DNA of 64,000 nt from an uncultured virus (IMG/VR IMGVR_UViG_3300020049_007251) (IMGVR_UViG_3300020049_007251); one strand, 5' to 3'; shown: positions 1 through 64,000, counted from the first letter of the stretch. Numbers and translations are program-made. Notes: generated by a model not told the origin, from the letters alone.

Positions 1-1616
1 GTACCATTGTTGGTAATGGTATTATTGGAAATATTTACATTATCCACGTTCCGAAGAATGGTTAAATCTGCGTAGATGCCTTCTAACCCGTTGGCTGAAA
101 TAATATTTCCACTGATGAGGGATCGATTGAACATTGTTCTAACACCGTAGCCTCCGTTATTCCTCACAATGTTATTAGTAAAGATTATTCGAGAATTTGT
201 ATCTGTTGAATACCCACGGAATTCAACACCATTAAGGGTATTATTTAATACTATGTTTCCTGTAACTGTGAAATCATTTACCGTAAGATTAACAAAGGTG
301 CCCGTAGTAACTACTATTCCATCATTACTATTATTAACTGCGGTGTTATTTGCAATAATTACTCCGGAAGTCCCACTAATACGAATGCCATCAAAACAAC
401 CTGAAGTGGTATTATTAGCAATAACAAAATTATAATTCGGAGAAGTAGATCCCGTTTGTTCTTCTAAAAGAATTCCTGCATCGTATAAGACATTTACAGC
501 CTGGTTATTTGTTATAATAACATTTTCATCTATGCCAGTACCGTTCGTTCCAAATCCGATACCATTACTTCCCAGCGGTACACCGTGACCGCCAATCGAT
601 CTAGCAGCACTACCACAACTTTCAACAATATTATTGTCAATAACTGTTCGAGTAGCGTGATCGGTTGCTAAGCACGTAGCTGGAGTATCATATATCCAAG
701 TATGATCAATTTTACTATTGTTTAAATAAATTATACTTATTCCTTTTTGAGATACCCCATACGTAGCATTTCGCATATCGGTTCCTACCATTTTCATATC
801 GCTTATACGGATATTATTTGTTGGAGAACCAGCAGTTCCATCCCAATTTTGAAAGATACCCGTATTATTTAGCGATTGTAGACCAAACAACGTTGTTTGA
901 CCTAACATACCTGAGCCTTGAACCCACACATTAGGTAGTGGTTTTATACTTTGAGAAATATTAAAACTTCCTTCAGTTAAAAATACTTTTCCTCCGTACG
1001 TAAGAGCATTAGCTGCAACTATAGCAGCATTAATCTCTACCTGATCCGCAGTTCCGTCCGCCGTATAATCGCACTTATACGTAGCGGTTTTATTAGAGGC
1101 ACATACCGTATACGTAGCAATAGCTCCGCCGCTACTTGTAGGTGCAGCCCACGTCCCATCCCCCCTCCAGAAAGTTGAAGAACTTGCGGAAGTACCGCTG
1201 TTTAAATTACCCACGGGAAGATTACCAGTAACCGCACCACTTAATGGAATACCTGTTAACCCTGAACCACTACCACTGAACGTGGTGGCTTTTACAGTTC
1301 CAGTAACGTCCAGTTTCTGGGTAGGAGAAGCATTACCAATCCCGATGTTTGTGCCGTCCGTGTAAAGCATGTTACCGGCAGCAAAGATCCCTCCGTTATT
1401 ATACTGAAACTGCCCAGTAGAACCTGCTGGGGTACCACCAAAGGTGGCATCGTTGACAGCCTGAAGAGCCTTTTGAACCGTGTTTGCGTCGACAGGTATG
1501 TTGTCTCCGAAAGTAGACGTATTAACTGTAACGTCCTTGGCCGGGACTTTCGTATCAGCAAAAGCTAAAGACGACGAAAGTAGGATTGCAAGTAAACTTA
1601 AAAACCATTTTTTCAT
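1..1616 (-). CDS. Tail spike/depolymerase-like right-handed beta-helix protein with N-terminal signal peptide (runs off left edge; missing from ORF track)
   Basis: Hand translation from ATG 1616 (RBS AAGGAG at 1623-1628): [23 protein letters not shown]..., GNIGIG-type fibre motif ([16 protein letters not shown]), [31 protein letters not shown] pectate-lyase-like cap, then Asn-ladder repeats (IITNN, VIANN, ISGNII); open to position 1. Confidence 0.8.
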
Positions 1617-1626
1617 TTGTTTCTCC

Positions 1627-2142
1627 TTAGCTGTTAATTCCGACTACATATAGTTTATCGTTTATATCTAATCCTACGTTCAAGGTCAATGTGTAACCGT
1701 TTATTGTATAGTCTAAGTTGTCTTGTACGACTCCGTTCACTGCTACATATACAATAGGGTTAGGCTGGAAAGAAAGCGTGAACACGGTCTTGTCAGCTGT
1801 GCCGACCAACTCATAATACGAGGCAAAATTAAGAACATTAGCCCCCACCACCGGAGTCATGACTTGATAAAAACCAGCCACCTTGTCTCCGATGTCTCTT
1901 CCAGGGCTTACAGTCAGGGTACTGTCCAAAATAGTATAATCCCCGTTTAAAGGATCCTGAGCTATCCCATTTATATTCACGGAAATAATCCCCGTCAATA
2001 CCGGGTAGTCGTCAAGTTCAAAATCCGTTTGTCCGTCTGAAGTAGCGACAATCGAGAAGTTTCGATACTGGGGTAAAATAGGGAATTGAGATAGTGCCTC
2101 AATTACTTTCTGCTGTTGTAGTAGCACTATTCCTGGATTCAT
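1627..2142 (-). CDS. Tail-associated adaptor with two tandem beta-rich repeats
   Basis: Repeat unit [17 protein letters not shown] / [17 protein letters not shown]; lies in the fibre region. Confidence 0.6.
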
Positions 2143-2510
2143 TTAGTAGTCCTTTCAATAACATTAGCCGTCCCAAAGATAATTTGTTCTGTCCACCCAC
2201 TTACGTTTGTTACTAAAACATCATAACTCCAGCTTCCTACTGGAAGAGTAGTGGTTACGCTTTTGGGGATTAGTAATTCTATTTTTCCACTTGGTCCATC
2301 GATTAAAATTGTACCCAGTGCCGTAGAGATATTCACTAGTGGTGTACCCGTAGAACCCACCGTTGGTCTTACCTGCATTTGCACGCTGTACCCAGTAATA
2401 TTAACTGGGTATTTTAGTCCGATCGATTCTACACTTACCATATAAATAATTGGTAAATAAAAATCTGTTCCTCTTACGATATCGATAGCTACTTCACAAT
2501 CATTCTGCAT
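2139..2510 (-). CDS. Tail fibre attachment/BppU-like Ig-fold protein
   Basis: RGTDF..NITGY..MQVR..YDVLV pattern typical of phage adaptor proteins; position. Confidence 0.55.
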   Translation of the reverse strand: MQNDCEVAIDIVRGTDFYLPIIYMVSVESIGLKYPVNITGYSVQMQVRPTVGSTGTPLVNISTALGTILIDGPSGKIELLIPKSVTTTLPVGSWSYDVLVTNVSGWTEQIIFGTANVIERTTK

Positions 2511-2519
2511 ATAAGATCC

Positions 2520-3365
2520 TTAAGTTTTGATGATGTAATTAAGAACCAATGAAGGTTGGATATTATTGTGTGCTCCTCCACCACCTTCGGTTGAAGTAGA
2601 AGCGTCTTGTCTATTGGTATTACTACCACCTGCCGGAGATTCACTACCGCTTCCAGAGTTATGAGCATACCAGGTAGAGTGACTGTGTGCTGGCATTTCT
2701 GCAGTAATCAAAGTATGTGTCTTTGCACCAGGGTTCGCGCCCAACGTACCAAAATCAGAATCAGACGCCTTATACCCTACTGCTACATTCCCTCTCAAGT
2801 CGGGAATATTGAAAGTTGTTGCACCGTCTCCAGCCCCGTAAGTTGTACCACAAATAGCAAACAACGCCGCATACGTAGCTCTACTAACTGCGGCACCGTT
2901 ACATATCAAGTAACCCGTAGGAGCAATTGATCCAGCAAACATTTTAACCACACCAGCGGTTTCAGTATTCTTAGATCCGATTCCAGGTTGCCAACTTGCT
3001 GGAGAAGAAGAAGGAGTATTCCCGGTATTGTTGTCGGCCAAGGATTGATAGATTTGTCCAGCTACCTGCACAAAGCTGTCAATATAATAGGTCGTTGCTG
3101 AATCATACTCAGGGATGCCCATTTGCAAAATGTAAGAAAGCATGTAACCGTACACATAGTCAATGGCGTTCATGTCTTCAAGGAACGGTCGATTTGTTGC
3201 AACAGTTTCAGCCGCCCACCCTCGTGGCCACGCAGTACCTGCTTGGAGGGTAGCAATGTCAGCAGTGTAAATTGGGGCAGCGTAAGAACCAAACTGACCA
3301 ATTTCTGACCCAGCATTTACTGTGCTACCAAATTGTAGTAAGGTTTTCCTGGTTAGTTTTGCCAT
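2520..3365 (-). CDS. Tail fibre with tail-collar domain
   Basis: P-x-GYLICNGAAVSRATYAALFAICGTTYGAGDGATTFNIPDLRG collar motif; HSH and HNNIQPSLVLNYIIK tip. Confidence 0.85.
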   Translation of the reverse strand: MAKLTRKTLLQFGSTVNAGSEIGQFGSYAAPIYTADIATLQAGTAWPRGWAAETVATNRPFLEDMNAIDYVYGYMLSYILQMGIPEYDSATTYYIDSFVQVAGQIYQSLADNNTGNTPSSSPASWQPGIGSKNTETAGVVKMFAGSIAPTGYLICNGAAVSRATYAALFAICGTTYGAGDGATTFNIPDLRGNVAVGYKASDSDFGTLGANPGAKTHTLITAEMPAHSHSTWYAHNSGSGSESPAGGSNTNRQDASTSTEGGGGAHNNIQPSLVLNYIIKT

Positions 3366-17175: not shown

Positions 17176-17358
17176 TTACTTAGTTCCATAGTCTTTTGGT
17201 ACTCTTTCTACAATAGCTACAAACCCATTAGCTTCTTGATGAATTGAAACTTTATACCCTTCTTTTTCTAACTGCTCTTTATAAAATTCAGCTTTTTCTT
17301 TTGTAGGAAAGCTATGACCAATGCCATTCTTTCTTTCTAACAAATCATGTCTTCGCAT
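17176..17358 (-). CDS. Small hypothetical protein (MRRHDLL N-terminus)
   Basis: Coupled to flanking head genes; RBS AGGAG. Confidence 0.6.
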   Translation of the reverse strand: MRRHDLLERKNGIGHSFPTKEKAEFYKEQLEKEGYKVSIHQEANGFVAIVERVPKDYGTK

Positions 17359-18178
17359 TTTCTATCTCCTTAAACAAATTACTAGTATGATCATTTTGCC
17401 CATTTCCCATAATATTGGGGTGTTTTTCTTCCACTGCCCTTTTCGGTTCATTCGGTTCAGCTAAAAATACATTTTCCGACTTTTCGTTAAGTCCGGGATT
17501 TCTTTCAAGAACGTCAGCATTAAACAGATGCCCGGAGTTGGCAAACGTAACGTGCGCATGTTTAATTCTTACACCCCAGTGCACGTATTGGGGGATGTTG
17601 TTGTCCAAACAAATCTGAGCGAAGTAAGAATCGTCCGGGCAAACCTCGTCGCCTTTGTACATTGGGCGTTCCAGGTATTTAAAAGGTGCTACCTTAATAA
17701 GTGTCATACCGAACCCGATCAAGTCAACTTGCTGAACATCCGTCCCGGTGTAACCGTGGAACTGAACCGACTCCAACGTCTGCTCGTTCTTGTCAAAGGT
17801 CTCAATCAAACTTCTGGAAGGATCCCTCCTTAGCATCGCTTGAACGGTGTACGGGTAACGGCGATTTGGATAGGCTGCACCGATGACAACCTTGTCAGCT
17901 TCCAGAAGCTTGGTGAATCCGTCAACGGGAACTCCGTGAATGTCGTCGTCAATCCGAAGGATGTAATCGAACTTGTTAGCGAAAGCGACGTCCCAAATTT
18001 CGTTGTTAGCTGGCCACCAATTCTGACGGTACGGACAAAAAATAGCGTGCGTGAATCCATTACGTCGAACGTCGTTAAGAATCTTAAATAGCGAACTTAG
18101 CCAACGGTCGGGGTCAGGATCAATCCCACAAGTCGGACAAGCAATTAGAACCTTGAGCGGTTTGTCATTTTTCTGCAT
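17345..18178 (-). CDS. Glycosyltransferase (GT-A fold)
   Basis: VLIACPT, DYILRIDDD (DxD), IGFGMTLIK, PDDSYF..H motifs; RBS GGAG before ATG 18178. Confidence 0.7.
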   Translation of the reverse strand: MQKNDKPLKVLIACPTCGIDPDPDRWLSSLFKILNDVRRNGFTHAIFCPYRQNWWPANNEIWDVAFANKFDYILRIDDDIHGVPVDGFTKLLEADKVVIGAAYPNRRYPYTVQAMLRRDPSRSLIETFDKNEQTLESVQFHGYTGTDVQQVDLIGFGMTLIKVAPFKYLERPMYKGDEVCPDDSYFAQICLDNNIPQYVHWGVRIKHAHVTFANSGHLFNADVLERNPGLNEKSENVFLAEPNEPKRAVEEKHPNIMGNGQNDHTSNLFKEIENAKT

Positions 18179-19151
18179 AATCAAACTCCAACATGTTAAC
18201 GGTTGATAAAACGGGAATTGCTACACAGCGGCAGTTAAAATCTTCGCCGGGATTGTTTCTTGCACCTGTCGCAGGATCAGTGACGGGGGGTTGATCGAAC
18301 CTGAAAATTCTCCCCTGTAGGTGGCGATGAGCATCACGCACCCTTGAATCCTTTGATGTAGACCACATGTACTTATTAACTCCGGCGTCCTCGTAACGAA
18401 CTTGGCGGTACTTCGAAACCATTAAGCTTGTTTCTTGCTTGGCTAGGAACTTCGCTTTATTGTAGGATACCTTCTTTTCCGCTTGGATATCCTGAATCAA
18501 GTTCTCTGCTCGGAAACCTTGCTGTACGTTTGAAGACACTTTCTGTCTTAAACGCAGGATTTGTTCATCGTGCCATTTCTGGATGTAAAGATCGAGGTTT
18601 TCGGTGTAGTCGTCTTTAAGCTTTTCCACCAACTCTGGACGTAAAGGAATCCCTAACTCTTTGCCCGTGACCTTCTTTGTAGTGGTTTCGAATTGCTTAT
18701 CCAACCCCTGTAAGGTTTTCCCGAAGAGCGGAGTAAGGTCACCCACCTTAATCTTTTGCCCTTCAACGGCTTTAAGGAAATCCTCGACCTGTCTTAACTT
18801 TGCTTTTGCTTCGATGTTACCTTCTGTGATTGCCAACAGTACATCTTGGGGCAGGTCGCCAGTCTCCAGCTTATAGGCCTTTTTTACTTTATTGTAAACT
18901 GCGCCAATGCCCCTAAGTTCTTTTGAAAGGTTTGAATTGAGTTGTCCAATGAAGAATCCGTTGACGTATTGTAACTTTCCCGAGCGCAAAGCCTGAACCA
19001 AGTAACGACTCGAAGCATTCTCAACCGTCGGCTTGCCTTCCATGATCTGGAAAAGCGGAGCAAAGATAGCCAAATACAAAGCGTAGTAAATCTCCTTTGC
19101 AATCGGGGCTGAGTAAGCGTCACGGTCGTATATTGGTTTAAGGGTTTTCAT
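18165..19151 (-). CDS. Head morphogenesis protein (SPP1 gp7/Mu F family)
   Basis: Y.WSTSKD.RVR..H, PGEDFNCRCVAIP. Confidence 0.9.
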   Translation of the reverse strand: MKTLKPIYDRDAYSAPIAKEIYYALYLAIFAPLFQIMEGKPTVENASSRYLVQALRSGKLQYVNGFFIGQLNSNLSKELRGIGAVYNKVKKAYKLETGDLPQDVLLAITEGNIEAKAKLRQVEDFLKAVEGQKIKVGDLTPLFGKTLQGLDKQFETTTKKVTGKELGIPLRPELVEKLKDDYTENLDLYIQKWHDEQILRLRQKVSSNVQQGFRAENLIQDIQAEKKVSYNKAKFLAKQETSLMVSKYRQVRYEDAGVNKYMWSTSKDSRVRDAHRHLQGRIFRFDQPPVTDPATGARNNPGEDFNCRCVAIPVLSTVNMLEFDYAEK

Positions 19152-20735: not shown

Positions 20736-21278
20736 TTATTGAGCCTTCTGTATGAACCAAACCGAGGATTTATCCATAGCTTTGAAGTGCTCCCCAAAGC
20801 TTTCTTTTAACGCTCTTTGCACTCCGGGGTGAGCTTCGTCGTTGTCGTGTCCAGCCATGATTGCTCCCGGCATTAATAGTTCAAACCAATTAAAGTCTTC
20901 CATCACAGCTTCGTAGGTGTGATCCCCGTCGATGTAAATGAAATCAATGATCCCTGGAACAAAGATCTTTTGCGCTTCAACCGAGGTCATAAGCATCGGA
21001 CGAACCTTCTCGGTCAACCCCATGATGCTCATATTGCTTCGGAAAACCTCCAACACTGACCGTTCCTTCGCTTCGTTAACCATGTGAACTTCGTCCGGGG
21101 CACCTTGCCACGTGTCAACACAATACAAAAGATCAGAGTACCGAGCAATGATGCTGGAAGAAAGTCCCTTCCAAGAACCAATCTCAACGGCGCACTTGGG
21201 ACGTTTTTGCTCAACCAAAGCCTCGAGGGAAGCCATGTCGAACGAGGTCATTTGCGGATCGAAGATAATGTCACGCAT
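20736..21278 (-). CDS. Class I SAM-dependent methyltransferase (Methyltransf_24-like)
   Basis: VEIGSWKGLS, CVDTW, DFIYIDGDHTYEAV..D, GHD motifs. Confidence 0.85.
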   Translation of the reverse strand: MRDIIFDPQMTSFDMASLEALVEQKRPKCAVEIGSWKGLSSSIIARYSDLLYCVDTWQGAPDEVHMVNEAKERSVLEVFRSNMSIMGLTEKVRPMLMTSVEAQKIFVPGIIDFIYIDGDHTYEAVMEDFNWFELLMPGAIMAGHDNDEAHPGVQRALKESFGEHFKAMDKSSVWFIQKAQ

Positions 21279-21978
21279 TTGAAACCTCCTTACGAAGGGC
21301 GGCTAACAGCTTGTTGATTTCTTCATAGTTCGGACGCATGTCGAAAGGAACTTGGTTCTCCATAATGCGCTTAGAGATGTGGTCTTGCTCACGGGTTTGG
21401 TTGTGATGGCAATAATGTCGCAACGTAATGGGCAATTCAACAACCGAGTCAACTGCGTCGTAAAGGTTCTTACACCAAATGTCGGCACCCCAAGTTGGAA
21501 TGCGAGCAGGGAAAACTCCCCCCAAAGCTTCAACACCAGCACGTCCCTGGAGAGGGAAACAGCAATAGTTACCGTGACCTTTGGCTCTGAAGCCGTCAAT
21601 GCCGTCCTGGATCCAACCGTAAATAACATTGGGTTTGTCTTTGAGAACGTCGTAAGCAAGAACGTCCCAGTCAGGAGTTTCGAAAACACAGTCGTCATTT
21701 GCCGTAATAATCCAACGCCCTTTGGATTGGGATGCGAGGTAAGAGTAATAATCACGAGAGAAATTGAGGGAGCGTTCCACAACGTGCATATGAACGAAGG
21801 GTAACGGGTAGGTGTTTAGGTATTCCTGGGTAATGACATCGTCGGAATCAACGGCAATGAGAACTTCAATTTCTTTGGTGTTGCACGTGTTCTGGATGAG
21901 AGAACTGAGGAGTTGCTTGAGCAAAAAGATTCTTTCACGGGTGGGGAAAACAACGGAAAATTTGATTTGGTTGTCCAT
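21271..21978 (-). CDS. Glycosyltransferase family 2-like
   Basis: FSVVFPTRER, EVLIAVDSDD, ANDD, D.W motifs. Confidence 0.75.
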   Translation of the reverse strand: MDNQIKFSVVFPTRERIFLLKQLLSSLIQNTCNTKEIEVLIAVDSDDVITQEYLNTYPLPFVHMHVVERSLNFSRDYYSYLASQSKGRWIITANDDCVFETPDWDVLAYDVLKDKPNVIYGWIQDGIDGFRAKGHGNYCCFPLQGRAGVEALGGVFPARIPTWGADIWCKNLYDAVDSVVELPITLRHYCHHNQTREQDHISKRIMENQVPFDMRPNYEEINKLLAALRKEVSNA

Positions 21979-21980
21979 AG

Positions 21981-23183
21981 TTACATTACGTCGTAGATAC
22001 TGACGTTTCCTTTCATATACGGCTCGAGCGCATAACGAGCAGCGTCGCAAGCATGATTTGACTTATCCACAGGAATAGGTAAAACTTCATCTGTAATTCT
22101 GTCAACCTTCCAACGGTAATTTGAGAAATCACCCACGCTACCTGTACAACTTGGATGAACAATAATGGCTTCAAAGTTTTTAAGGAATTCGATTCCATCT
22201 TCTACGCTTCCTGGACCTTTCTCTGCACCGATGCAATTAAATCCTTGATTCGACATGTAAGAGATTGTGTCAGGACGGGAAGAATCCCCACGAATTGTAA
22301 ACTTACGAGAGTGTTCAACGCCATCAAAACAACGAGGCAAATCGTCAATCTCAATACCGTACCCGTAGAATTCCCGGTCAATGTATAATTTACGATCCCG
22401 AATAAACATACGAACCAAACAAGAAGGGTCAACACCAAAACCCCAATCTGCGCCAAACATGAACTGAGTGCCTTCGCCTGCTGGTTCGAATTCTTCAACC
22501 CGAAGTTTATTCTTAAAGATAACCGCTTGACCGTATTTCTTTGGTCGCCCTCCCCACACATGGTCGTATTTTTCAGGGTCGTTTTGCTTGCACCAGAGCA
22601 TTTCCCGCCGCAGCACTTCTGGGAACCATGGGTTGTCCCACCAGTTGACAAAGGCGCTGACAAGCCCTGGCTGAGAAACGGGCTTGCCGTCTTTTTCAAC
22701 GAATCTGGTGTAGGTGTCTGAGTTCTCATCTTCGGGGTTGAATGTCAGAATGATTTCTGACTTTGGCTTTCTGATTGTTGGTATTAGAGTATCCCAAGAG
22801 TCTTTTGATACCTTTTCAGCTTCTTCGACCCAGCAAATATCAACGCCTTCGGTTGACTTTATCTCGCTTATGTTTTGCCTAAGGCCTTTAAATAGGAATT
22901 CTGAACCAAATATCCCATAAATGCAGTCCCTTTGAATGTCGTAAACGTTTTGGAGCTTATGATGATATATTCGGTCGCAGAGCAAACGGTAAACTGAATC
23001 TCTTATTGAGCCTTGAATTTCTCTGGTACATAAAACCCGTCTTTTAGCATACGCGGTTCGAGTTAGCAGGTAATCCGCGACGGACCAGGACTTGGTTGAG
23101 CCTCTTCCGCCGTATAGTGCCTTGCGGTCGGCTTCTTCGTTATAGAGAACCTTTCTAACCTTGGGCGGTACTTGGATTATCAT
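21981..23183 (-). CDS. terL: Terminase large subunit (PBSX/SPP1 type)
   Basis: GGRGSTKS Walker A, WVEEAE Walker B, PTIR, FNP, GADWGF..DP, NH..DA.RYA. Confidence 0.95.
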   Translation of the reverse strand: MIIQVPPKVRKVLYNEEADRKALYGGRGSTKSWSVADYLLTRTAYAKRRVLCTREIQGSIRDSVYRLLCDRIYHHKLQNVYDIQRDCIYGIFGSEFLFKGLRQNISEIKSTEGVDICWVEEAEKVSKDSWDTLIPTIRKPKSEIILTFNPEDENSDTYTRFVEKDGKPVSQPGLVSAFVNWWDNPWFPEVLRREMLWCKQNDPEKYDHVWGGRPKKYGQAVIFKNKLRVEEFEPAGEGTQFMFGADWGFGVDPSCLVRMFIRDRKLYIDREFYGYGIEIDDLPRCFDGVEHSRKFTIRGDSSRPDTISYMSNQGFNCIGAEKGPGSVEDGIEFLKNFEAIIVHPSCTGSVGDFSNYRWKVDRITDEVLPIPVDKSNHACDAARYALEPYMKGNVSIYDVM

Positions 23184-23981: not shown

Positions 23982-24016
23982 ATCATACTATTTAGTATAA
24001 ACGTTAATAAAAAGTA

Positions 24017-24045
24017 TGTACAAAAGACTTTCTTCTCTATATAAT
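24017..24045 (+). promoter_or_regulatory. Sigma70-like early promoter
   Basis: TGTACA-17 nt-TATAAT upstream of HTH gene. Confidence 0.55.
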
Positions 24046-24069
24046 GTTTTTCAATGAAAGGAGAAACTA

Positions 24070-24306
24070 ATGTCAAATAAAATACCAAAAGAATTTGAAA
24101 AATTATTAGTAGAATGGAGAGCAACTTTAGGAATGTCTCAAGTTGAATTAGCGAATGAACTTAGAGTTTCACAGGTAACAATTTCTAAATGGGAAAACGG
24201 TAAATCAAGGGCAAGTAAAACCTTAGAATTCAGTGTATTAGAATGGGCATATGAAAAAGGGTTAATAGATAGCTCCCCTAGGGCTAACTGGAAGGAGGAG
24301 GAATGA
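24070..24306 (+). CDS. XRE/Cro-like HTH regulator
   Basis: R..LGMSQ.ELA..L.VS..TISKWENG. Confidence 0.9.
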   Translation: MSNKIPKEFEKLLVEWRATLGMSQVELANELRVSQVTISKWENGKSRASKTLEFSVLEWAYEKGLIDSSPRANWKEEE

Positions 24307-30462: not shown

Positions 30463-30467
30463 AATAA

Positions 30468-39094: not shown

Positions 39095-39112
39095 ACAATA
39101 AGGAGAAAAATA

Positions 39113-40833: not shown

Positions 40834-41067
40834 ATGAAAGAGATATTGACTTTTTTAATTATCGGACTCTTGTTGATGCTAGCCATATTTACAGCTTACG
40901 CTATCTATGTTTCAAAAGCGCCAATAAAAGAGGTGGTTTGTTATATGGGTGATCGAGTTGAGACAGAAACTGGATACGAGTACCCGAATTTTGAATGCAC
41001 GTGGCGCAGGGGAACCAAACTCATTTTAAAGGGTGGAAAACCTACAAACCAAAGAGAGGATAATTAA
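40834..41067 (+). CDS. Small membrane protein
   Basis: N-terminal hydrophobic helix; RBS GAGG. Confidence 0.5.
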   Translation: MKEILTFLIIGLLLMLAIFTAYAIYVSKAPIKEVVCYMGDRVETETGYEYPNFECTWRRGTKLILKGGKPTNQREDN

Positions 41068-41068
41068 A

Positions 41069-41374
41069 ATGATTGAGAAATCAGAATTAAAAAAGCTTCA
41101 CATTGTGCCGGTCAACAAACATGTCGTCGTCGTAGCTCAAGAGATCGTCACCGGCGGCGGCATCATATTGCCTGAAAGGGCAAATAAATTGGAAGCCAAC
41201 ACTTGCATGTTGGAAGTTCTTCTTGTCGCTGAAGATTGCGAACAGGTCAAGGCCGGCGATTATGTTCAGATCCGATCGAACGCTTTCGCCGACGGGTTTG
41301 ATTTTCTCGAGGATAAATATATCATGTTCAAAGAAGAAGAAGTCGGGGTCGTCTACCGAAGAAAGGATAAATAA
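41069..41374 (+). CDS. groES: GroES/Cpn10-like co-chaperonin
   Basis: P....V.V...TGGGIILP, VKAGD.V, Y....EEEV. Confidence 0.8.
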   Translation: MIEKSELKKLHIVPVNKHVVVVAQEIVTGGGIILPERANKLEANTCMLEVLLVAEDCEQVKAGDYVQIRSNAFADGFDFLEDKYIMFKEEEVGVVYRRKDK

Positions 41375-43117: not shown

Positions 43118-43157
43118 GCAGATGCTCAATAATAAAACACCAAAAAGGAGAATGAAA

Positions 43158-43418
43158 ATGTCATTAATTTTGCCAGTCCAAACAGTCATCGAAAACTTAA
43201 TTAATAATCTTTATAATGATGCAAAAATTGTCTTGACCGGGACAACACGACTTTCAGATGATCTTGAGCTCGATTCCCTTGACCGCGTTGAACTCACAAT
43301 GATGATCGAGGAACATTTTAAAATCGAATTTATGGACTATGAATCTGATAAGTGGCAAACCATTGAAGATATTGCCCTTGCAACAGAAAAGAAAATTGAT
43401 GCCGGGAAATTCCATTAA
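43158..43418 (+). CDS. Acyl carrier protein
   Basis: L..DL.LDSLDRVEL.M.IEE.F.I....W.TI.D with conserved Ser; acidic; RBS AGGAG. Confidence 0.85.
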   Translation: MSLILPVQTVIENLINNLYNDAKIVLTGTTRLSDDLELDSLDRVELTMMIEEHFKIEFMDYESDKWQTIEDIALATEKKIDAGKFH

Positions 43419-51622: not shown

Positions 51623-52153
51623 ATGTTCAAGTTAAACAAGAATGCAATCATCGCAATTATGATGTTCGCCGTTCTTGCCTTGTCAAATGTCGCTTCTGCT
51701 TCAGTTGGAATCAGATTAGATGACGTTTATCAGGGCGAAGCGACCGAGATCAATCTTGATACCGGGGGAAGCATCACGACTAACGACGGAAGCAAGTTTC
51801 AGCTTCCTATCGTAAGCGCGGGATTAATCCCAACGGGCCAAGGTTTGAGCGGTAGCACGTCAATGGCCGATACTGACACAGCCGTGCCCGTCACGTATGC
51901 GTTGGTAAGAAAAGCAATTAGCTCAACGGTCAGCCTTGCCGGGACATTAGCAAACGGCGTCCCCGGTCAGGTATTGAAAATCGAAATTACGGCTCGGGCA
52001 TCTTCCGGGACGTATATTCTTAGGCCGACAACGGCAACCGGCTTTACCACCGTAACCTTTGATGGTGTCGGTGATTATCTGACTTTACTTTATGTCAGCG
52101 ATACAGTCGGTTGGATCGCTATTGGTTCGAATAGCGTCACGTTCAGCGGATAA
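51623..52153 (+). CDS. Ser/Thr-rich beta-structured protein with Sec signal peptide
   Basis: MFKLNKNAIIAIMMFAVLALSNVASA-SVG; C-terminal TLANG..GQ...I ... GD..TL.Y....GW, a pattern seen in phage structural proteins. Confidence 0.7.
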   Translation: MFKLNKNAIIAIMMFAVLALSNVASASVGIRLDDVYQGEATEINLDTGGSITTNDGSKFQLPIVSAGLIPTGQGLSGSTSMADTDTAVPVTYALVRKAISSTVSLAGTLANGVPGQVLKIEITARASSGTYILRPTTATGFTTVTFDGVGDYLTLLYVSDTVGWIAIGSNSVTFSG

Positions 52154-52200: not shown

Positions 52201-53265
52201 ATGATTAAAACACTCACCATTCTCGCCACGACATTAATCGTGGCTTTAGCTTTAATCCCGCCGATTCAGTTTTTTATTTATTTCCCGGATCAAAATTTAT
52301 GGCCTTGGGCGATGACATTGATCGCATTTGCAGGCTTCTTGCTTTTCTTCATCAAGACGTCTTTTGCCGTTAAGGCCGTTAGCTTCCTTTCTTTTGTGAA
52401 TTGCTTTGCGGTCGGCGGCGGCCTGCTTGCATTCCAGAATCACGCATTGATTGTGTTCGCATGTTATTTTTTTATCCTATACACGAAAATAGACTTTAAG
52501 ATCACCGGCAAGGCGATTGCGGCGATCATATTGCTTAACCTTTTTCTTTTGATCGTCCAACATTTCAATGCCGATTCGATGCTTAACTTTGGGATCGATA
52601 GATCCCGCGTTCACGGTGTGGTCGGTCAGTCGATGCAAATGGGAAGCTTCAGCGTCATTTTATCTGCGGCGGCTTTGCCTTTTGCGTGGTGGATGATCTT
52701 CTTTCCAATAGTCACCGGCTTGATGATTGGTTCTTCATGGGCGATATTTTCTGCGGCCGTGGGGATATTTGTATTTTTTATGTGCATGGGATTGCGTATA
52801 CTCGCCGTATTATTTGCCGGCGCGGTCATTGTTTTATTTCTTTCCGTTTGCATCAGCCAAAACAAGATCGGATCTAATTTGGGCATTGGCGGACGTGCCA
52901 AAGCATGGAAAGAAACTGCAAAGCTCACACTTGAGCATCCCGTAAAAGGGTGGGGCGGCGGAAAATTCAAGTATATCTTCCCGGCGTTAGGATCGAAACA
53001 TCACAAGCCGTACACAACCGCACACAATTTCTTTTTACAGTTTGCCTTTGAATTTGGATGGCCTTTGACGATATTGGTCGGACTTTGCCTTGCTTGGTTA
53101 TTCTGGAAGCTTATTGTGATCGGCGCATTCGATCTTGCGACCGGCCTTTCGATGATCGTCGTAAATGCTCAAGTTCACTTCCCGGATAGAATGATTCAGA
53201 CTGTTTTAATAATCGTATTTTTTCTTGCAATGTGCCATAGGAGAATCGCCAATGACCGCACTTAG
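52201..53265 (+). CDS. O-antigen ligase/oligosaccharyltransferase-family (WaaL/Wzy_C) membrane protein
   Basis: About 10 hydrophobic segments; R...W....L..EHP..GWG.G.F and AHN.FLQ...E.G loop motifs. Confidence 0.8.
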   Translation: MIKTLTILATTLIVALALIPPIQFFIYFPDQNLWPWAMTLIAFAGFLLFFIKTSFAVKAVSFLSFVNCFAVGGGLLAFQNHALIVFACYFFILYTKIDFKITGKAIAAIILLNLFLLIVQHFNADSMLNFGIDRSRVHGVVGQSMQMGSFSVILSAAALPFAWWMIFFPIVTGLMIGSSWAIFSAAVGIFVFFMCMGLRILAVLFAGAVIVLFLSVCISQNKIGSNLGIGGRAKAWKETAKLTLEHPVKGWGGGKFKYIFPALGSKHHKPYTTAHNFFLQFAFEFGWPLTILVGLCLAWLFWKLIVIGAFDLATGLSMIVVNAQVHFPDRMIQTVLIIVFFLAMCHRRIANDRT

Positions 53266-58046: not shown

Positions 58047-60688
58047 ATAATGTCTTAGTGAAATCCACAAATGAAGTCATCGGATTCGAAGATAGTGTCT
58101 CTATCGACGAAATTCAAAAGATTATCAGCAACGATCAGAACGGGACGATCTCGGCATATAAGCCGTCATTCTATGACCGCGCTTTTCGTGAACCGATGCG
58201 AAAGCTTGGCGCGGATTTTGCGCAACCAAAATTTATCTCGGAGCCGCCCAAGAGCTTCGAGGAAATCATAAAACCACTCAAAACGGCCGGGTGGAACCTT
58301 CTCGCAGGCGTTGAAAGCGGAACAATCGCTTTAAATAAAGTTTTCATGCTCGATAAAATACCGGCGATTAAGGCTTCGCTCGATCAATCTCAAAAGGGGA
58401 TCGATGTCATCAATGAAATGAGCAAGACCGAAAACAAGAGCGCGGCTTTTGCAAATCAATTCATGGCGCAGATCGGCGCATTTGTCCCCACGCTACCTTC
58501 AGACATGGCTTTAGGTGGAATCACAAGGACGACGTTATTGACAAGATTCCCGGCCGCCTTACAGCCGTATTTGAGTAGAATCCCGGATTTTGCGATAGGG
58601 ATGGGCGAGAAGGCTTTTGTCAGCGAAGCGCAAAAAGGCGAGTCAGTTGCGAAGCCTTTTGAATCGGGCGCAGAATCAATGGCAATCGGGACGCTCTTTG
58701 GTGTCGCCAACACAATCCCGCGAATGACCGCGCTTGGTGTTGCTGAAGCAAATTATAACGCAATCAAAGAAAATCGATTGGCAAGTGGCGAAGAAATGCT
58801 AACCGGCGCGGCAAATGGTGCGGCTTTCGGCATCGTATTTAAAGCAGTAGAACACCTTCATTCTATCGGGGACAATTCCGCGATTGAGCCGTATTATCAG
58901 CGCATGGCAAGCGCAATGGAAAAAGGCGACATCGTTGGGCTTAAAAAAGAATATGATTCAATGCTTTCAAGCGACACTTTATCGAAAAAGCAAAAAGTTG
59001 ATCTAAAGGAAGTATTTGATAGCTCGGTCAAGGGATATTCCGAGACGCACAATAAAGATTTTCAGCTTTTAATGAGCCTTTCGTCGGCAAGCCATATTTT
59101 AAAGCTCACTGGCGATCAGCCGGCCGTCCGCGAAGGAATGCTTTCGCAAGTCCAAAGCCTTGTCACCGGCTACCTAAAATCCAAAACTCCGAACATGGCA
59201 AATTCGACCGCTATTCAGGCTTCAAAAGAATTGATCGAGATCGAAGCGCAAAGAGTCGTATCGGAGCCTTTAGGCGAAAGCATTACGAAGATTTTATCTC
59301 GCGGCGATGATGTCCGTAACCGGGCGAACAAAGGGAAAATGTCCGAGCCCGAGATTAAACAGCAATTCAATGACCCGAACGCCGTAGAAACGCTTGATTA
59401 CTTAGCGCAATATATGTCCCCAAAGGCGGTCGCTTCGATGTCAGGTCAAGAACGCCTTCAAATGGCAAACGGCCCTTGGCAGAATCTGCGGGATTATGAA
59501 GCAAATTTTCAAGTAAGACAGGCGGCTCGCCAAGAAGAAGCAATCGCTCGGGCAACACGCGAGCAAGAATCTTTAAGAAAATCGGCCGCCGATCGCGCCG
59601 CTGACGAAGTTCAAGTTGCAAACGCTGAAGGCGAAGGCATGATTACGCGCCAACCGTCAGACTTGCAGATCGTTTTGAGCTCACCGGCCGCAACGTCAAA
59701 ACTCGTTGAGAACATCGCCAAGGCCGTAATCGAGCAACCGAAGGCAAAAGAGCAGGCAAAAAGCGAGATCGTTAAGCCAAGCGAAGATTTGCAGGGGAAA
59801 CCGGGCATTGTAGAGAAGATTTCAGAGCCCAAAACGCTTGAAGAATTCCAGACTGTTATCCGAAGCGGAAACAAGAAGATCAATTTGACCGAAGAAGCGG
59901 TCGGATTCGGGGAAAGAAATAAAAACACGCCCGGAATCGTTGAACAGTTGACGGCGGCCCGCAAGGAAGCACAAAAACGCGCTGACGATAGCGGAAACGC
60001 TCAAGCTCAGACTGAAGCACAGCTTTTCAATGAAGCGATCAAGGGGGCGGAAGGAAAATTAACCGTTCAGGGGATTCGTGATACTCGCGCAAAATACTTA
60101 TCCACAGGAAAGCCACAGACAGTTAATATCTCCCCGGTTGAAGGCGTAGGAGAAACGAAAACGCGCGGATTGTCGCAAGGTGTTGAGGAGAAAGCGATCG
60201 CCAAGAAATTGACTGAAAATTTTGGTGATTTGCCGCAATACAAAAGTGTTTCTATGGAAGATCAGGCGGCTCGAGCAAACGATCTTTTAATAAAAGACCC
60301 GGCGAAAGCAAAGCGAATCGCGATGGGTCAAGAAATTCCACCTGAAGGATTGTTGCCTGAAAGCGTCTTTGTCGCCTTAGAAAACAAAGCGATAGCGCAG
60401 GGCGACGTCGCAACATTGCGCGACCTTGCCACAGCTTCCGGGCTGACCGCAGAAGCGACGACGATGGGGCAAAGACTTAGGACATTAGCCGAGCGTGAGC
60501 CCGATTCTCCCGTTTCAGCGATCATGGAAGTTGCCAAGGCCCGCGAGGATGCGGCGGTCAAAAAGACTAAAACCAAGGATATTAAAAAAGCCAAGGAGAA
60601 AATCGTCAATGAAGTTAAATCTGAAATTAAGAAAACCGCCCCGACGAAAAAGGATTGGGACTCTTTCATCCGGGGCTTGGAATGTTGA
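58043..60688 (+). CDS. Large internal virion/ejection protein, part 1
   Basis: 881 aa, helical with hydrophobic Gly/Ala segments; position. Confidence 0.55.
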   Translation: MNNVLVKSTNEVIGFEDSVSIDEIQKIISNDQNGTISAYKPSFYDRAFREPMRKLGADFAQPKFISEPPKSFEEIIKPLKTAGWNLLAGVESGTIALNKVFMLDKIPAIKASLDQSQKGIDVINEMSKTENKSAAFANQFMAQIGAFVPTLPSDMALGGITRTTLLTRFPAALQPYLSRIPDFAIGMGEKAFVSEAQKGESVAKPFESGAESMAIGTLFGVANTIPRMTALGVAEANYNAIKENRLASGEEMLTGAANGAAFGIVFKAVEHLHSIGDNSAIEPYYQRMASAMEKGDIVGLKKEYDSMLSSDTLSKKQKVDLKEVFDSSVKGYSETHNKDFQLLMSLSSASHILKLTGDQPAVREGMLSQVQSLVTGYLKSKTPNMANSTAIQASKELIEIEAQRVVSEPLGESITKILSRGDDVRNRANKGKMSEPEIKQQFNDPNAVETLDYLAQYMSPKAVASMSGQERLQMANGPWQNLRDYEANFQVRQAARQEEAIARATREQESLRKSAADRAADEVQVANAEGEGMITRQPSDLQIVLSSPAATSKLVENIAKAVIEQPKAKEQAKSEIVKPSEDLQGKPGIVEKISEPKTLEEFQTVIRSGNKKINLTEEAVGFGERNKNTPGIVEQLTAARKEAQKRADDSGNAQAQTEAQLFNEAIKGAEGKLTVQGIRDTRAKYLSTGKPQTVNISPVEGVGETKTRGLSQGVEEKAIAKKLTENFGDLPQYKSVSMEDQAARANDLLIKDPAKAKRIAMGQEIPPEGLLPESVFVALENKAIAQGDVATLRDLATASGLTAEATTMGQRLRTLAEREPDSPVSAIMEVAKAREDAAVKKTKTKDIKKAKEKIVNEVKSEIKKTAPTKKDWDSFIRGLEC

Positions 60689-60706
60689 AAAAATGGGAGA
60701 TAATTA

Positions 60707-62359
60707 GTGTTTTGTCTAAATAAAAATTTAACATCAGATTTCATGAAGAAGCTCAAGAGTGGCGAAATCGACCCGGCAAAATTAGTCGAAATGACGTCAC
60801 AGGAACGCCGTGACTTCTTTTCGAAATTCCTCGGGGAAGAAAATGCCCGTCAGGTCAATGCGCTTTTTGAAAGCAAATTGCTTTTAAAGAATCAACAGCA
60901 GGGAATCATCACATGGGCGAAGAAGGTCGCCGGCATCACGAAAGAAGCCGAGAAAGACATTCTCTCCCGGGTTGATCGCATGACTGAAGTTCTTCAGCCG
61001 AAAGACATGGACAAATTTCTGGAAGATTTGGCCGCGCAGAAATTGGGCGTCGGCGTGACAATGCAAGAAGCCGGCAAGATCGCAGAGCTCGCAAAGTCAG
61101 CGTCAACCAAGAAAGAATCGATCCCGGAAAGTGCTTCGATCGGAAGTGATGTTCGTCTTGCATACGGCCGAGCCCGGGTTGCGTTCGATAACTATGTCAG
61201 CGAATTAAAAGCAAACGTGAAAAAGCCGATCACGGTCGGCGGCGCAATATCAGGAACCGCCGGGCTTGCGAAATCTTTGAAAGCGTCGCTTGATAATAGC
61301 GTTATCGGTCGCCAAGGCCTGAAAGTATTATTCACGAATCCTAAAATATGGGCCAAGAATTCCGCGCAAACGTTTGTCGATATTTTTAACACATATAAAG
61401 GCCGTGAAGTCATCGACGAAGTGAAAGCCGACGTTTTGTCACGTCCGAATGCGATCAATGGACTCTATAAAAAAGAAAAGCTTGCCGTAGGCGTCACCGA
61501 AGAAGCTTTCCCGACGGCTTTGCCTGAAAAAATCCCGTATCTTGGAAGATTATTCAAGGGATCGCAGGCCGCTTTTACCGCTTTCCAATATCGTACAAGA
61601 GCAGATGTCTTTGACAAATATGTCGAGATCGCCAAGAAGTCGGGCGGCGACATTGAAGGCATTGGATTACTCGCTAATTCTCTGACAGGGCGCGGAAACA
61701 TCGGGCCTTTGGAACCTTCCGCGCAGGCGGTTAATAATATTTTCTTTTCTCCGCGTTTGCTTAAAAGCAATATTGACGCTTTAACCGGCCACGTTGCCGA
61801 TTACGGAAAAATGGGGACGTTCGCAAAGAAGCAGGCGGCAATCAATACGCTTAAAATTATCACCGGCGTCGCAACAATCTTGGCAATCGCAAAAGCGATC
61901 GACCCGGACAGCGTTGACTTCGATCCTCGCGGCGCAAACTTCGGAAAGATCCGCGTCAATGATACCCGTTTTGATGTCAGTGGCGGCATGTCCGCAATTG
62001 TTATTCTCGCTTCACGTTTAGCGACGCAATCTTCAAAAAGTAGCGTCACAAATAAAGTGACAAAATTGAATTCCGGGAAATTTGGCGCAAAGTCCGGGAC
62101 GGATGTCATTTATAACTTTTTTGAAAACAAGTTGTCGCCTGCGGCGGCAGTTCTAAAAGACCTTTTGAAAGGTAGCGACTTCTCCGGGAATAAGCCAACG
62201 CTCATGAATGAAGCGAAGAATCTTTTGCTACCGCTTCCGATTAATACTTTTATCGAATTACAAAGCAACCCAAATTCAGCAAATATCATCGTCGCCATGA
62301 TCGCCGACGCTTTAGGGATTTCTGTCAATACGTACTCGGGAAAAACAAAGAAAGATTAA
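60707..62359 (+). CDS. Large internal virion/ejection protein, part 2
   Basis: GTG start with GGGAG RBS; D.S..GRQG, N..TGRG, FFSPR, DPR..NFGKI...TR.D..GG. Confidence 0.6.
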   Translation: MFCLNKNLTSDFMKKLKSGEIDPAKLVEMTSQERRDFFSKFLGEENARQVNALFESKLLLKNQQQGIITWAKKVAGITKEAEKDILSRVDRMTEVLQPKDMDKFLEDLAAQKLGVGVTMQEAGKIAELAKSASTKKESIPESASIGSDVRLAYGRARVAFDNYVSELKANVKKPITVGGAISGTAGLAKSLKASLDNSVIGRQGLKVLFTNPKIWAKNSAQTFVDIFNTYKGREVIDEVKADVLSRPNAINGLYKKEKLAVGVTEEAFPTALPEKIPYLGRLFKGSQAAFTAFQYRTRADVFDKYVEIAKKSGGDIEGIGLLANSLTGRGNIGPLEPSAQAVNNIFFSPRLLKSNIDALTGHVADYGKMGTFAKKQAAINTLKIITGVATILAIAKAIDPDSVDFDPRGANFGKIRVNDTRFDVSGGMSAIVILASRLATQSSKSSVTNKVTKLNSGKFGAKSGTDVIYNFFENKLSPAAAVLKDLLKGSDFSGNKPTLMNEAKNLLLPLPINTFIELQSNPNSANIIVAMIADALGISVNTYSGKTKKD

Positions 62360-62371
62360 AGGAGATTTAAA

Positions 62372-63274
62372 ATGACGCTATCAAGTTCAGTGAATAAGGT
62401 TATTTATACCGGGAACGGCTCGACGGCAACTTATGCCTACACATTCAAAATACTTGACGAAGAAGATTTGATCGTCACTCGGGTCGTGATTGCGACGGGA
62501 GTTGAAACGGATCAGGTTTTGACGACCGACTACACAGTCACCGGCGTAGGGAATCCGAGCGGCGGGAATGTTATTTTAGTCGCCGGGAATCTTCCGTCGA
62601 CGCAGAAGCTTGTCGTTCGCCGCGTTGTCGACATGATTCAAGAAGTCGATTATGTCGAGAACGATCCTTTCCCTGCGGAAACACACGAAGAAGCCCTCGA
62701 TCGCTTAACGATGATGTGCCAACAATTACAGGAACAAGTCGACCGTAGTGTTCAAGTTGGATTGACTGGAACAGTTCAAACCGCTGAAGAATTATCGGCG
62801 GCAATCGCGGACGCGCAAGCGGCGGCAACAGCGGCGGCGGCAAGTGCATCATCGGCGTCATCTTCGGCGTCATCGGCTTCAAGCTCCGCAAGTACAGCGA
62901 CGACACAGGCCGGCAATGCGGCAACAAGCGCGGCGGCGGCATCAGCGAGCGCGGCGGCGGCGGCATCAGCGGCGGCATTATCCGGGCTAGGGACTCGCAC
63001 GACGGGTTATTCAACGAATACGGCATATCTTGCGGCGACCGATCTTTTTGTCATGGCAATTGGTTCTTTCGGCTCCGGGACAAAAGGGGCTTCGAGCATT
63101 GACGGAATCGCAGATTCAAACGCGAGTCCTTCGACCCGCAGGGCTTACGTAGAGAACTCGACAAATGGATATTACGGATCAATATGTTTCCCCGTTAAAA
63201 AGGGCGAGTATTGGAAAGTCGAATATACCAATATGGGGAATGAAAGCATTCAAACCATCACACTTGGAACCTAA
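62372..63274 (+). CDS. Tail fibre with T7 gp17-like N-terminal attachment domain
   Basis: Y.GNG....Y.F, DYTV.G, E..LD.LTM..QQ; Ala/Ser-rich stalk; FPVKKGEYW tip. Confidence 0.85.
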   Translation: MTLSSSVNKVIYTGNGSTATYAYTFKILDEEDLIVTRVVIATGVETDQVLTTDYTVTGVGNPSGGNVILVAGNLPSTQKLVVRRVVDMIQEVDYVENDPFPAETHEEALDRLTMMCQQLQEQVDRSVQVGLTGTVQTAEELSAAIADAQAAATAAAASASSASSSASSASSSASTATTQAGNAATSAAAASASAAAAASAAALSGLGTRTTGYSTNTAYLAATDLFVMAIGSFGSGTKGASSIDGIADSNASPSTRRAYVENSTNGYYGSICFPVKKGEYWKVEYTNMGNESIQTITLGT

Positions 63275-63289
63275 GAAGGGGGATTAAAA

Positions 63290-63490
63290 ATGTTCAAAAG
63301 AAAAGAAGCAAAACTGATTCAGGTATTCGCGATGATCGTCTTTCTTGCGGTCGTCACGGTGAGCGTCAAGGCGTTCGCAAAATATGAATCATCGTCGGAA
63401 GATGTCAAGCCGGTAGTCCTTTATGGAAATTATCTCGGCAATATTTTGCCGTTAAAAGTCGACGTAAATGGAGTTATTCAAACCAATTAA
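63290..63490 (+). CDS. Small secreted protein (signal peptide plus 36-aa module)
   Basis: ...FLAVVTVSVKAFA-KYESSSED..V.YG.Y....PLKV. Confidence 0.6.
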   Translation: MFKRKEAKLIQVFAMIVFLAVVTVSVKAFAKYESSSEDVKPVVLYGNYLGNILPLKVDVNGVIQTN

Positions 63491-63591
63491 GGGGGGGAAG
63501 ATGAAGAAGTTTATTTTGTTATTGTTGTTAGTCTTAGGGCAGATTTTAGCAACGTCGGCGTTCGCAAAATATGAATCATCGTCGGAAGATG
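63370..63591 (+). repeat. Exact 35-bp direct repeat across two signal-peptide cleavage sites
   Basis: GGCGTTCGCAAAATATGAATCATCGTCGGAAGATG at 63370-63404 and 63557-63591. Confidence 0.95.
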
Positions 63592-64000
63592 CCGAAAGCG
63601 TTGTCGCTTATGGGAAATACGGTGACACCGTTGTCCCGCTAAAAGTGACATCAGACGGAAGTCTTGAGATCGAAGGCGGCGGATCTTTTAGTGGAGAGAT
63701 GACCGGGCCATTCACTCAACTGACTTCTTGCCCGGCTGACATCGTTGCATATATGGCTGCGCTTGCCGAAGACACGCGCGTCCAGTTTCCTTCGGGATGT
63801 TCATATACCCTCACGACAGCTTCAACAGTTGAAATCCCAAGCGGGGTTTGGGTTGACTTTTCAGATACATTGTTCAATAGAACGGCAACCGCCGCCGCGA
63901 TTATAACGGCAACGACGAAAGACGTAACGAAAAGTATTCATATTAGCAATGTGCGTTGCACCGGGGCATTTGCAACTTCATGTATCAGTATCAATCAAAA
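63501..64000 (+). CDS. Signal-peptide-bearing tail-spike-like protein (runs off right edge; not in track)
   Basis: MKKFILLLLLVLGQILATSAFA-KYESSSED..V.YG.YG...PLKV..DG; then VQFPSGCSYTL...VEIPSGVWV, resembling a beta-helix cap. Confidence 0.65.
   Translation, partial: MKKFILLLLLVLGQILATSAFAKYESSSEDAESVVAYGKYGDTVVPLKVTSDGSLEIEGGGSFSGEMTGPFTQLTSCPADIVAYMAALAEDTRVQFPSGCSYTLTTASTVEIPSGVWVDFSDTLFNRTATAAAIITATTKDVTKSIHISNVRCTGAFATSCISINQ

Follow-up and report, generated by a model that had tools for sequence, protein, structure and literature searches.

Why would spike-like proteins encoded in the late operons of tailed phages begin with Sec signal peptides, when tailed-phage assembly is taught as wholly cytoplasmic? 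The question is raised by a 64,000-nucleotide stretch of DNA from an uncultured virus (IMG/VR IMGVR_UViG_3300020049_007251), hereafter the window, in which an initial annotation had noted such signals at four late-gene starts (1616 on the minus strand; 51623, 63290 and 63501 on the plus strand) in two unrelated phages. It had proposed a shared, host-linked strategy in which receptor-binding or decoration parts mature in the periplasm and join the particles after lysis, with display or release as depolymerases as alternatives. In this study, we have compared these genes with their relatives in other viral records, and we tentatively read them as receptor-binding proteins that pass through Sec, acquire their fold in the periplasm and attach to particles at lysis, an interpretation to which we give not far below an even chance.

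The two phages have unrelated chassis, as had been claimed. Positions 1-23,600 (minus strand) hold, by Pfam scan, the late module of a contractile-tailed phage (myovirus 1), and about 40,400-64,000 a T7-like podovirus with Rep O, RusA, terminase, PF12236 portal, PF19821 capsid, tubular proteins A and B, internal proteins and a fibre gene; no family is common to the two structural modules. Four related records extend the comparison: G001 (95 kb) matches window positions 1-45,643 at 99.98% and adds a second myovirus about 80% identical to the first (myovirus 2), G003 and G004 (each about 43 kb) carry myovirus 1 and myovirus 2 alone on a contig, and G002 (26 kb) is a variant of the podovirus.

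Signal peptides on late-gene products

All four starts open with a basic n-region, a hydrophobic core of about 10-15 residues and an A-x-A site within the first 20-30 residues, as expected of Sec export and signal peptidase I. The sites are AFA, ASA, AFA and AFA at 1616 (minus strand), 51623, 63290 and 63501, respectively. In the myovirus, the signal peptide of the spike occupies 1557..1616 (minus strand; 20 codons, LAFA/D); the predicted cleavage divides the other three as MFKLNKNAIIAIMMFAVLALSNVASA/SVG (51623), MFKRKEAKLIQVFAMIVFLAVVTVSVKAFA/KYE (63290) and MKKFILLLLLVLGQILATSAFA/KYE (63501). Each ATG has a Shine-Dalgarno site of the AGGAG/GGGGG type 5-9 nt upstream, and the competing upstream starts at 51467 and 63468 have no ribosome-binding site (RBS). 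Signals were sought with a custom heuristic for the n-, h- and c-regions, applied in all six frames to each ATG, GTG or TTG start with 50 codons or more behind it. It flagged 20 signal-like starts in the window, and eight of these have an RBS-like word: the four starts above, a SleB-like hydrolase at 26225, small membrane open reading frames (ORFs) at 39277 and 40834, and 22198, which we take as spurious, being off-frame inside terL. The heuristic alone is not clean, because it also flags this off-frame ORF; the four starts stand above chance because their homologues conserve the pattern.

This conservation has a particular form. All five proteins with the N-module of the myovirus type (P0005, P0008, P0053, P0071 and P0091; 667-1213 aa) carry signal peptides of divergent sequence, in which the first 20 residues keep only charge and hydrophobicity, and from position +2 after the A-x-A site the sequence is nearly invariant. 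Proteins with the N-module of the podovirus type likewise all have a signal peptide (7/7: two in the window, G002, P0248, P0249, P0253 and P0258), and here an identical KYESSSED start is preceded by two quite different signal peptides. A divergent leader before a conserved mature start is the usual signature of a leader that is cleaved, which at the level of sequence suggests, indirectly, translocation and cleavage, since conservation begins at or just after the predicted site. In the 176-aa product of the gene at 51623, the AlphaFold2 model shows a lone N-terminal helix followed by a low-confidence linker.

The signal-bearing genes are embedded in the late operons. They follow the preceding late genes by 10, 28, 15 and 10 bp (1616 on the minus strand, 51623, 63290 and 63501), and we found no excess of promoter- or terminator-like sites around them in gaps of 10-47 bp, where consensus scans are weak. 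Thus the late-operon placement, the RBS-backed N-termini and the A-x-A sites of the initial annotation all hold. What did not survive is the product of 63290 as a fourth signal-bearing protein, as this start opens only a recombination remnant of 66 aa (63290..63490, plus strand) made of a first signal peptide (a), the beginning of the podovirus-type docking module and a stop. A variable segment of 187 bp (63370..63556, plus strand) contributes the end of this remnant, an RBS and a further signal peptide (b); the segment is absent from G002 and in the window closes the first reading frame. The region 60,500-64,000 was found in wastewater metagenome runs (at least half of the sampled words in seven rows), and these runs hold natural variants: one contig of run X1 passes directly from 63369 to 63557, and the segment is present in contigs of runs X6 and X7. 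The polymorphism duplicates signal peptide and docking module, and from its sequence it looks like the footprint of a cassette exchange at the conserved KYESSSED segment.

Modular spikes and their companion genes

The start at 1616 belongs to the myovirus-1 spike (3..1616, minus strand), of which the window holds the first 538 of 789 residues, the full length being known from related records. Behind the signal peptide (residues 1-20) come a conserved mature N-module, a tail-fibre repeat and a right-handed beta-helix, with a knob beyond the window edge. The full-length protein matches Pfam Beta_helix (E 1.8e-17) and NosD (E 1.4e-8); the podovirus and myovirus-2 spikes gave no Pfam match above threshold. 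The tail-fibre repeat is widespread (4072 matches among 7999 scored candidates), with a signal peptide in 39 of 120 homologues, many of which, judging from their sequences, may be of bacterial and not viral origin. The podovirus spike begins at 63501 (63501..64000, plus strand), with the first 166 of about 808 residues in the window, this length being that of the 816-aa gene of G002 with the window's shorter signal peptide. Signal peptide b (residues 1-22) is followed by a docking-type module (KYESSSED..VV.YGKYG..VPLKV..DG), a GGG linker and the start of a Cys-rich distal part; a signal peptide is present in 50 of the 149 homologues listed, the three closest included.

The comparison of these spikes reveals their modular nature. 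The myovirus-2 spike (935 aa) has the signal peptide and N-terminus of its myovirus-1 counterpart and a different body, and this body is where it meets the podovirus spike: their distal parts are 87% identical in amino acids, whereas their N-modules differ. Conversely, P0249 joins an N-module of the podovirus type to a body of the myovirus-1 type. An N-module specific to the phage type, combined with a swappable body, appears here as it does in receptor-binding proteins docked on virions. That a host-linked strategy is shared is plausible, since a myovirus and a podovirus have the distal part of their spikes in common.

All three spikes end in a knob of about 140 residues (55% identical between myovirus 1 and the podovirus), a domain that is C-terminal in 1016 proteins at E <= 0.001. 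The AlphaFold2 model of the knob (pLDDT 85.7) is a TNF/C1q-like jelly roll, and comparisons at the level of the fold placed it by VIA closest to the lectin PLTL (9ib6; Z 13.1, rmsd 2.3, 123 residues aligned), followed by the cyanophage A4 tail (Z 11.5) and the A-1(L) short-fibre domain (Z 11.4), with PRD1 P5 also matched; Foldseek (E 1.6e-6) also listed the Sf6 tail-needle knob. None of the three spikes matched Peptidase_S74, and a sequence search of the PDB gave no match for either spike, for the 418-aa protein encoded beside the myovirus spike or for the Wzy_C-like protein described below. With a tail-fibre repeat, a beta-helix, a TNF-like knob and a place beside a T7 gp17-type anchor protein, the spikes are of the virion or receptor-binding type that had been supposed.

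This anchor protein (62372..63274, plus strand; 300 aa) has a T7 gp17-type N-terminal domain and matches 17 PHROG tail fibre or spike families (best E 2.6e-37, with residues 1-169 aligned to profile positions 1-169), in 13 of which the match begins at the family's N-terminus; none of the signal-bearing proteins matches the gp17-type families. Four related podovirus contigs encode longer proteins headed by the same domain, two of them complete (604 and 666 aa) and two cut by the contig end. We read the 300-aa protein, from its sequence and place, as a probable short fibre or spike adaptor, and the Pfam scan revealed no other spike-like gene in the podovirus tail module. In the myovirus, the gene directly upstream of the spike (1627..2142, minus strand; 171 aa; 10-bp gap) matched no family; it was considered as a counterpart of the anchor protein and rejected (BLASTP E 1.3; no PHROG below E 0.02). 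Further upstream lies a tail-collar fibre without signal peptide (2520..3365, minus strand; 281 aa; Collar E 6e-23; similar to gp73 of the Bdellovibrio phage phi1422), a conventional candidate for the receptor-binding protein of this phage.

In all three phages, the tail module closes with a signal-bearing spike (789-935 aa) followed by a signal-bearing protein of about 420 residues. In myovirus 1 the second gene encodes a 418-aa protein starting MKKLILLLLLIFGFCSNAFA, in myovirus 2 a signal-bearing protein of 422 aa, and in G002 a signal-bearing member of the same family follows a single spike of 816 aa. We take the small genes after this pair in the myoviruses for a lysis cassette, judging by their place and a single membrane-like ORF. 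Thus, although the chassis are unrelated, the phages do not provide independent or convergent cases of signal-bearing spikes, as they share one exchangeable cassette.

The family of the ~420-aa proteins, built of three beta-sandwich repeats of about 125 residues, is almost entirely viral. Its profile scan used an alignment of eight sequences (A2), a larger one of 47 (A1) being too diverse. The four closest homologues (35-54% identity) all have a signal peptide; among the 120 best, it is present in 32, ambiguous in four and absent in 84. One signal-bearing member, P0129 (L050:6995-8968; 657 aa), is fused to an SGNH/GDSL hydrolase domain, which hints at a capacity for glycan deacetylation in this family. 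Unrelated viral contigs also encode signal-bearing proteins that match tail or virion PHROGs (L050:6229-8968, L054:6416-9126, L061:2673-7489, L062:2116-3879 and L148:529-2049); often these are neighbours (L050, L054) or stand immediately before an endolysin gene (L054, L061), and some of their signals were called by eye, as the heuristic missed N-termini with an acidic residue.

The initial annotation had also remarked on several Cys in the spike-like proteins, and they are indeed enriched over other structural genes. The mature spikes have 7, 16 and 14 Cys (0.9-1.8%), compared with 0.66% in 23 myovirus and 0.39% in 11 podovirus structural genes of the window. Across spikes and ~420-aa proteins together, Cys make up 0.9-2.0% of residues, mostly closely paired and in even numbers. 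Within the ~420-aa family, 20 of 32 members with a signal have the Cys pairs at reference positions 97/106 and 360/369, compared with seven of 84 members without one. To judge from composition, such an enrichment is consistent with folding in the periplasm, without being evidence for it.

The remaining signal-bearing gene, at 51623, lies apart from the cassette. The 176-aa protein (51623..52153, plus strand) consists of a signal peptide (residues 1-26), the low-confidence linker and a C-terminal beta-sandwich that belongs to a small family of phage head-module proteins of about 122-143 aa. This fold gave only weak matches in the PDB, the best (E 2.4e-3) being to N-terminal domains of TSP4 of phage CBA120. 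In the three contigs inspected (L017, L021 and L024), relatives of the beta-sandwich lie just after a putative capsid gene, so named from size and position. Of the 22 loci recovered, 17 encode forms without a signal; forms with one are those of the window phage, L014, L148 and, by eye, L029. The 176-aa gene is followed by one for a polytopic membrane protein of the Wzy_C or O-antigen-ligase family (52201..53265, plus strand; 354 aa; PF04932 E 2.8e-11, 43.9 bits against a cut-off of 31.7). A Wzy_C-family gene directly follows a signal-bearing member of the 176-aa family in 3/3 lineages (window, L014 and L148), which are all the distinct lineages found with a phage Wzy_C-like gene. The pair is flanked by the capsid and tubular-protein genes in the window phage and in L014, whose capsids are only 40% identical; in L148 it adjoins lysis and early genes, outside the structural operon.

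The nearest Atlas clusters of the membrane protein are Wzy_C clusters and two all-viral ones (50 and 52 members), and no NCBIfam subfamily matched it, so that ligase, polymerase and O-oligosaccharyltransferase cannot be told apart. In the pilin-TfpO/PilO and ComP-PglL systems, an exported protein is followed by a Wzy_C-family O-oligosaccharyltransferase that glycosylates it, and the phage pair likewise sets a small exported protein before a Wzy_C-family membrane protein. Unlike the proteins of those pairs, the 176-aa protein has no pilin features, and it is from the genes alone that we liken the two arrangements. For the periplasmic glycosylation that had been suggested, the constant succession of the two genes is therefore only a hint.

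Proposed export and docking at lysis, and the alternatives

In the mechanism that we tentatively favour, tail-spike pre-proteins would be translated late, together with the other tail genes, and their signal peptides would route the chains through SecYEG, with signal peptidase I cutting after A-x-A. Mature chains would then fold in the oxidising periplasm, where closely spaced Cys could form disulfides. At lysis, the breach of the inner membrane would mix cytoplasmic particles with periplasmic spikes, which would dock through their N-modules, the predicted partner in the podovirus being the 300-aa gp17-type anchor protein. We infer export, cleavage, disulfides and, above all, virion docking; the last is supported by the phage-type-specific N-modules, the short podovirus fibre and the tight coupling to the late operons.

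Parts of this arrangement have known counterparts. In tails of the SP6, K1-5 and K1E type, separately encoded tailspikes are carried by a small adaptor whose N-terminus resembles that of T7 gp17, and Klebsiella phages of the KP32 type have anchor-branch receptor-binding-protein systems. The podovirus resembles SP6 and K1-5 in having a gp17-type anchor protein followed by a separate spike with a short conserved N-module and an exchanged body; it differs in the Sec-type signal peptide on every spike with the podovirus module (7/7), and binding of its spike to the adaptor is a prediction. Modular receptor-binding cassettes are already known, and what is new here is their probable form as exported pre-proteins. 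Signal peptides on genes placed among tail and lysis genes are likewise found in lambda Lom, Bor, T5 Llp and endolysins of the Sec or SAR type, which are outer-membrane proteins, lipoproteins and lysis enzymes, none of them with the architecture of a tail fibre or tailspike.

The closest described architecture, though cellular, is by analogy that of the Bdellovibrio MAT fibres, which have a signal peptide, directly after it a conserved beta-rich N-domain of about 130 residues, a phage-fibre-like trimer and swappable tips (PMC10769870). The tip of the MAT protein Bd2734 resembles the knob in its TNF-like fold (Z 9.3, rmsd 2.8, 118 residues aligned). Importantly, there are clear differences: the MATs are chromosomal genes of the predator and are displayed on its own surface, whereas the window genes lie in phage late operons, and the C-terminal S74 domain of the MAT S74 subgroup is missing from the three spikes. 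The likeness lies in domain order and tip fold. Bdellovibrio also provides the nearest cultured relative of the myovirus, phage phi1422, which is collinear with it (terL 49%, portal 40% and sheath 40% identity) and of whose late proteins 21 of the 27 compared match in order at 24-49% identity. Two phi1422 proteins, gp68 (615 aa, directly after the tail-fibre gene) and gp75 (171 aa, further downstream), share with the window proteins their position and N-termini that resemble signal peptides, with no similarity in sequence. Phage phi1422 is counted among the phiPLPE-like dwarf myoviruses, and the available text on this group (Comeau et al. 2012, PMC3391216) does not mention signal peptides on distal genes. 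These phages share with myovirus 1 the order terminase, portal, head, tail, baseplate and fibres.

Several observations weigh against the proposed export and docking. To our knowledge, a cleaved Sec signal has not been described for any virion protein of a tailed phage, and all textbook exported phage proteins (endolysins, spanins, Lom, Bor and Llp) are non-virion; a search of the open-access full-text literature revealed neither phage tail fibres or spikes described as having Sec signal peptides nor a phage O-oligosaccharyltransferase that acts on phage proteins. The myovirus, with its signal-less collar fibre, would not need the spike, and the 300-aa fibre of the podovirus could be a complete short receptor-binding protein. 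The signal peptides were called by eye and with a heuristic that over- and under-calls, rather than with SignalP. As 84 of the 120 best ~420-aa homologues have no signal, and the tree of this family requires at least 18 changes of the signal state (compared with six of the Cys state), the signal is labile and therefore not essential to the function of the fold. The 176-aa protein has no Cys, and in the ~420-aa family the link between Cys and signal is not significant by a sign test on 8 independent pairs of a FastTree phylogeny, a test that is underpowered. Of the disulfide maturation that had been suggested, the enrichment and close pairing of Cys thus stand, as a hint, and the association with the signal is lost after control for the tree.

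A different explanation, which we consider possible and worth serious weight, is that these proteins derive from receptor-binding proteins and are exported to act on the envelope, never becoming part of virions. Acting from the periplasmic side, they could destroy or mask the receptor polysaccharide, or they could be released at lysis as free depolymerases or lectins, so that progeny and superinfecting phages are not lost on the dying cell and its debris; in a variant, they would be displayed on the cell surface, as are MAT fibres. This agrees with precedent, as every Sec-exported protein known from tailed phages is non-virion, and with the Beta_helix/NosD-type repeats of the myovirus spike, which occur in exported glycan-active enzymes. 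It would also account for the place of the genes between tail fibres and lysis cassette (with signal-bearing tail homologues similarly placed in L054 and L061), for the repeated gain and loss of the signal in the ~420-aa family and for the presence of a signal-less fibre in the myovirus. The MATs, as described (PMC10769870), show that a signal, an N-domain and a phage-like trimer can make a cell-surface device. However, periplasmic location alone does not reach the outer surface, the catalytic activity and its substrate are hypothetical, and the podovirus would be left with only its 300-aa fibre. What this explanation leaves unaccounted for is one distal domain on the N-modules of two phage types, which fits a dock on the virion and not an anchor in the host envelope.

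The proteins could also be lysogenic-conversion genes (morons) carried by prophages, which together with the Wzy_C protein would remodel O-antigen or capsule, or add a surface protein. Lambda lom and bor and the seroconverting phages are precedents, the podovirus does have a Wzy_C-family gene, and in L148 the pair of signal-bearing protein and Wzy_C lies beside lysis and early genes. The three phages that lie head to tail in the 95-kb record could form a prophage array. The temperate phage VarioGold has adjacent genes annotated as "O-antigen ligase family" and "N-term signal peptide" near its integrase (PMC9658991), and the exported lambda lom is encoded between tail genes (PMC12309495). We nevertheless find this decidedly unlikely: the Pfam scans of the window revealed no integrase and no repressor-linked position, around the genes there is no room for promoters and terminators and, in weak consensus scans, no excess of them, the pair keeps its position between capsid and tail-tube genes in two podoviruses with little capsid identity, and the spikes have the architecture of receptor-binding proteins. 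That the N-termini are no working signal peptides, being wrong starts or a buried helix of trimer or virion contact in cytoplasmic proteins, is hardly tenable: the reliance on a heuristic that flags an off-frame ORF and the many signal-less ~420-aa homologues would favour it, but the leaders vary while keeping basic n-region, core and A-x-A, with conservation only after the site, one mature start stands behind two different signal peptides, the RBS are at these starts and not at the alternatives, and the 176-aa protein is modelled with a lone helix before a low-confidence linker. Something else altogether takes the small remainder.

If Sec export and docking at lysis do hold, passage through Sec would add a compartment to tailed-phage assembly. 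Receptor-binding proteins would gain access to disulfide formation and periplasmic glycan transfer, and the attachment of spikes would hinge on the order of events at lysis. Such spikes would misfold when expressed in the cytoplasm for depolymerase or host-range work, and annotation pipelines that drop signal-bearing genes as non-structural would miss the receptor-binding protein. We regard as doubtful, though conceivable, the broader proposal of an assembly route that spans lineages, with receptor-binding parts sent through Sec, oxidised in the periplasm and joined to particles at lysis, and the 176-aa protein perhaps glycosylated by its Wzy_C partner. Given homologous signal-bearing cassettes in many viral contigs and distal tail proteins with signal-like N-termini in phi1422, such a route would be recurrent and so far undescribed. 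Should the proteins instead act on the envelope, they would be widespread exported proteins that destroy or mask receptors and descend from tail spikes, which would still be new. The question can be tested in a cultured system, phi1422 on Bdellovibrio.

Layout of the window and other observations

The late genes of the myovirus follow the order Terminase_3 terminase, portal, Mu F-like protein, capsid, DUF3383 sheath, baseplate and two tail-collar proteins. Positions 24,000-39,100 (plus strand) hold early genes, among them thymidylate synthase, dCMP deaminase, family A polymerase and primase, which, by comparison with the sister phage, are those of myovirus 1. The nearest cultured phages are distant. 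With a terL profile, 93 relatives (33-54% identity) were recovered from prophages of many phyla, and none of them is close; the sheath protein had no match among the cellular genome contigs searched, and the portal of the podovirus is 37% identical to that of Pelagibacter podophages, its nearest cultured phages.

In G001, the podovirus, myovirus 1 and myovirus 2 (about 80% nucleotide identity between the myoviruses) succeed one another without cellular genes between them, and separate viral contigs terminate at window positions 39570 (myovirus) and 40398 (podovirus). The junction could be that of a real prophage array or an assembly join.

Other genes of the window deserve mention. Between the terminase and portal genes of the myovirus lie a GT2 glycosyltransferase and a Methyltransf_24 methyltransferase (20736-22050, minus strand), and between the Mu F-like and scaffold-like genes a 279-aa gene without family match (17345-18184, minus strand). 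Myovirus 2 carries the same set, which could modify virion proteins or glycan precursors. The SleB-like cell-wall hydrolase (26225-26668, plus strand; weak match to Pfam Hydrolase_2, E 0.0033) has an N-terminus resembling a signal peptide or lipobox (..TLSSC..AYA) and a signal-like counterpart in myovirus 2, so that a lysis enzyme may also use Sec. It is followed in the myovirus early region by a cluster of dUTPase-like, thymidylate synthase and dCMP deaminase genes (26856-29128, plus strand), possibly a module for nucleotide pools or base modification. Finally, the early region of the podovirus encodes a Cpn10 (GroES-like) protein and an acyl-carrier-protein-like one (41033-41374 and 43122-43418, plus strand).

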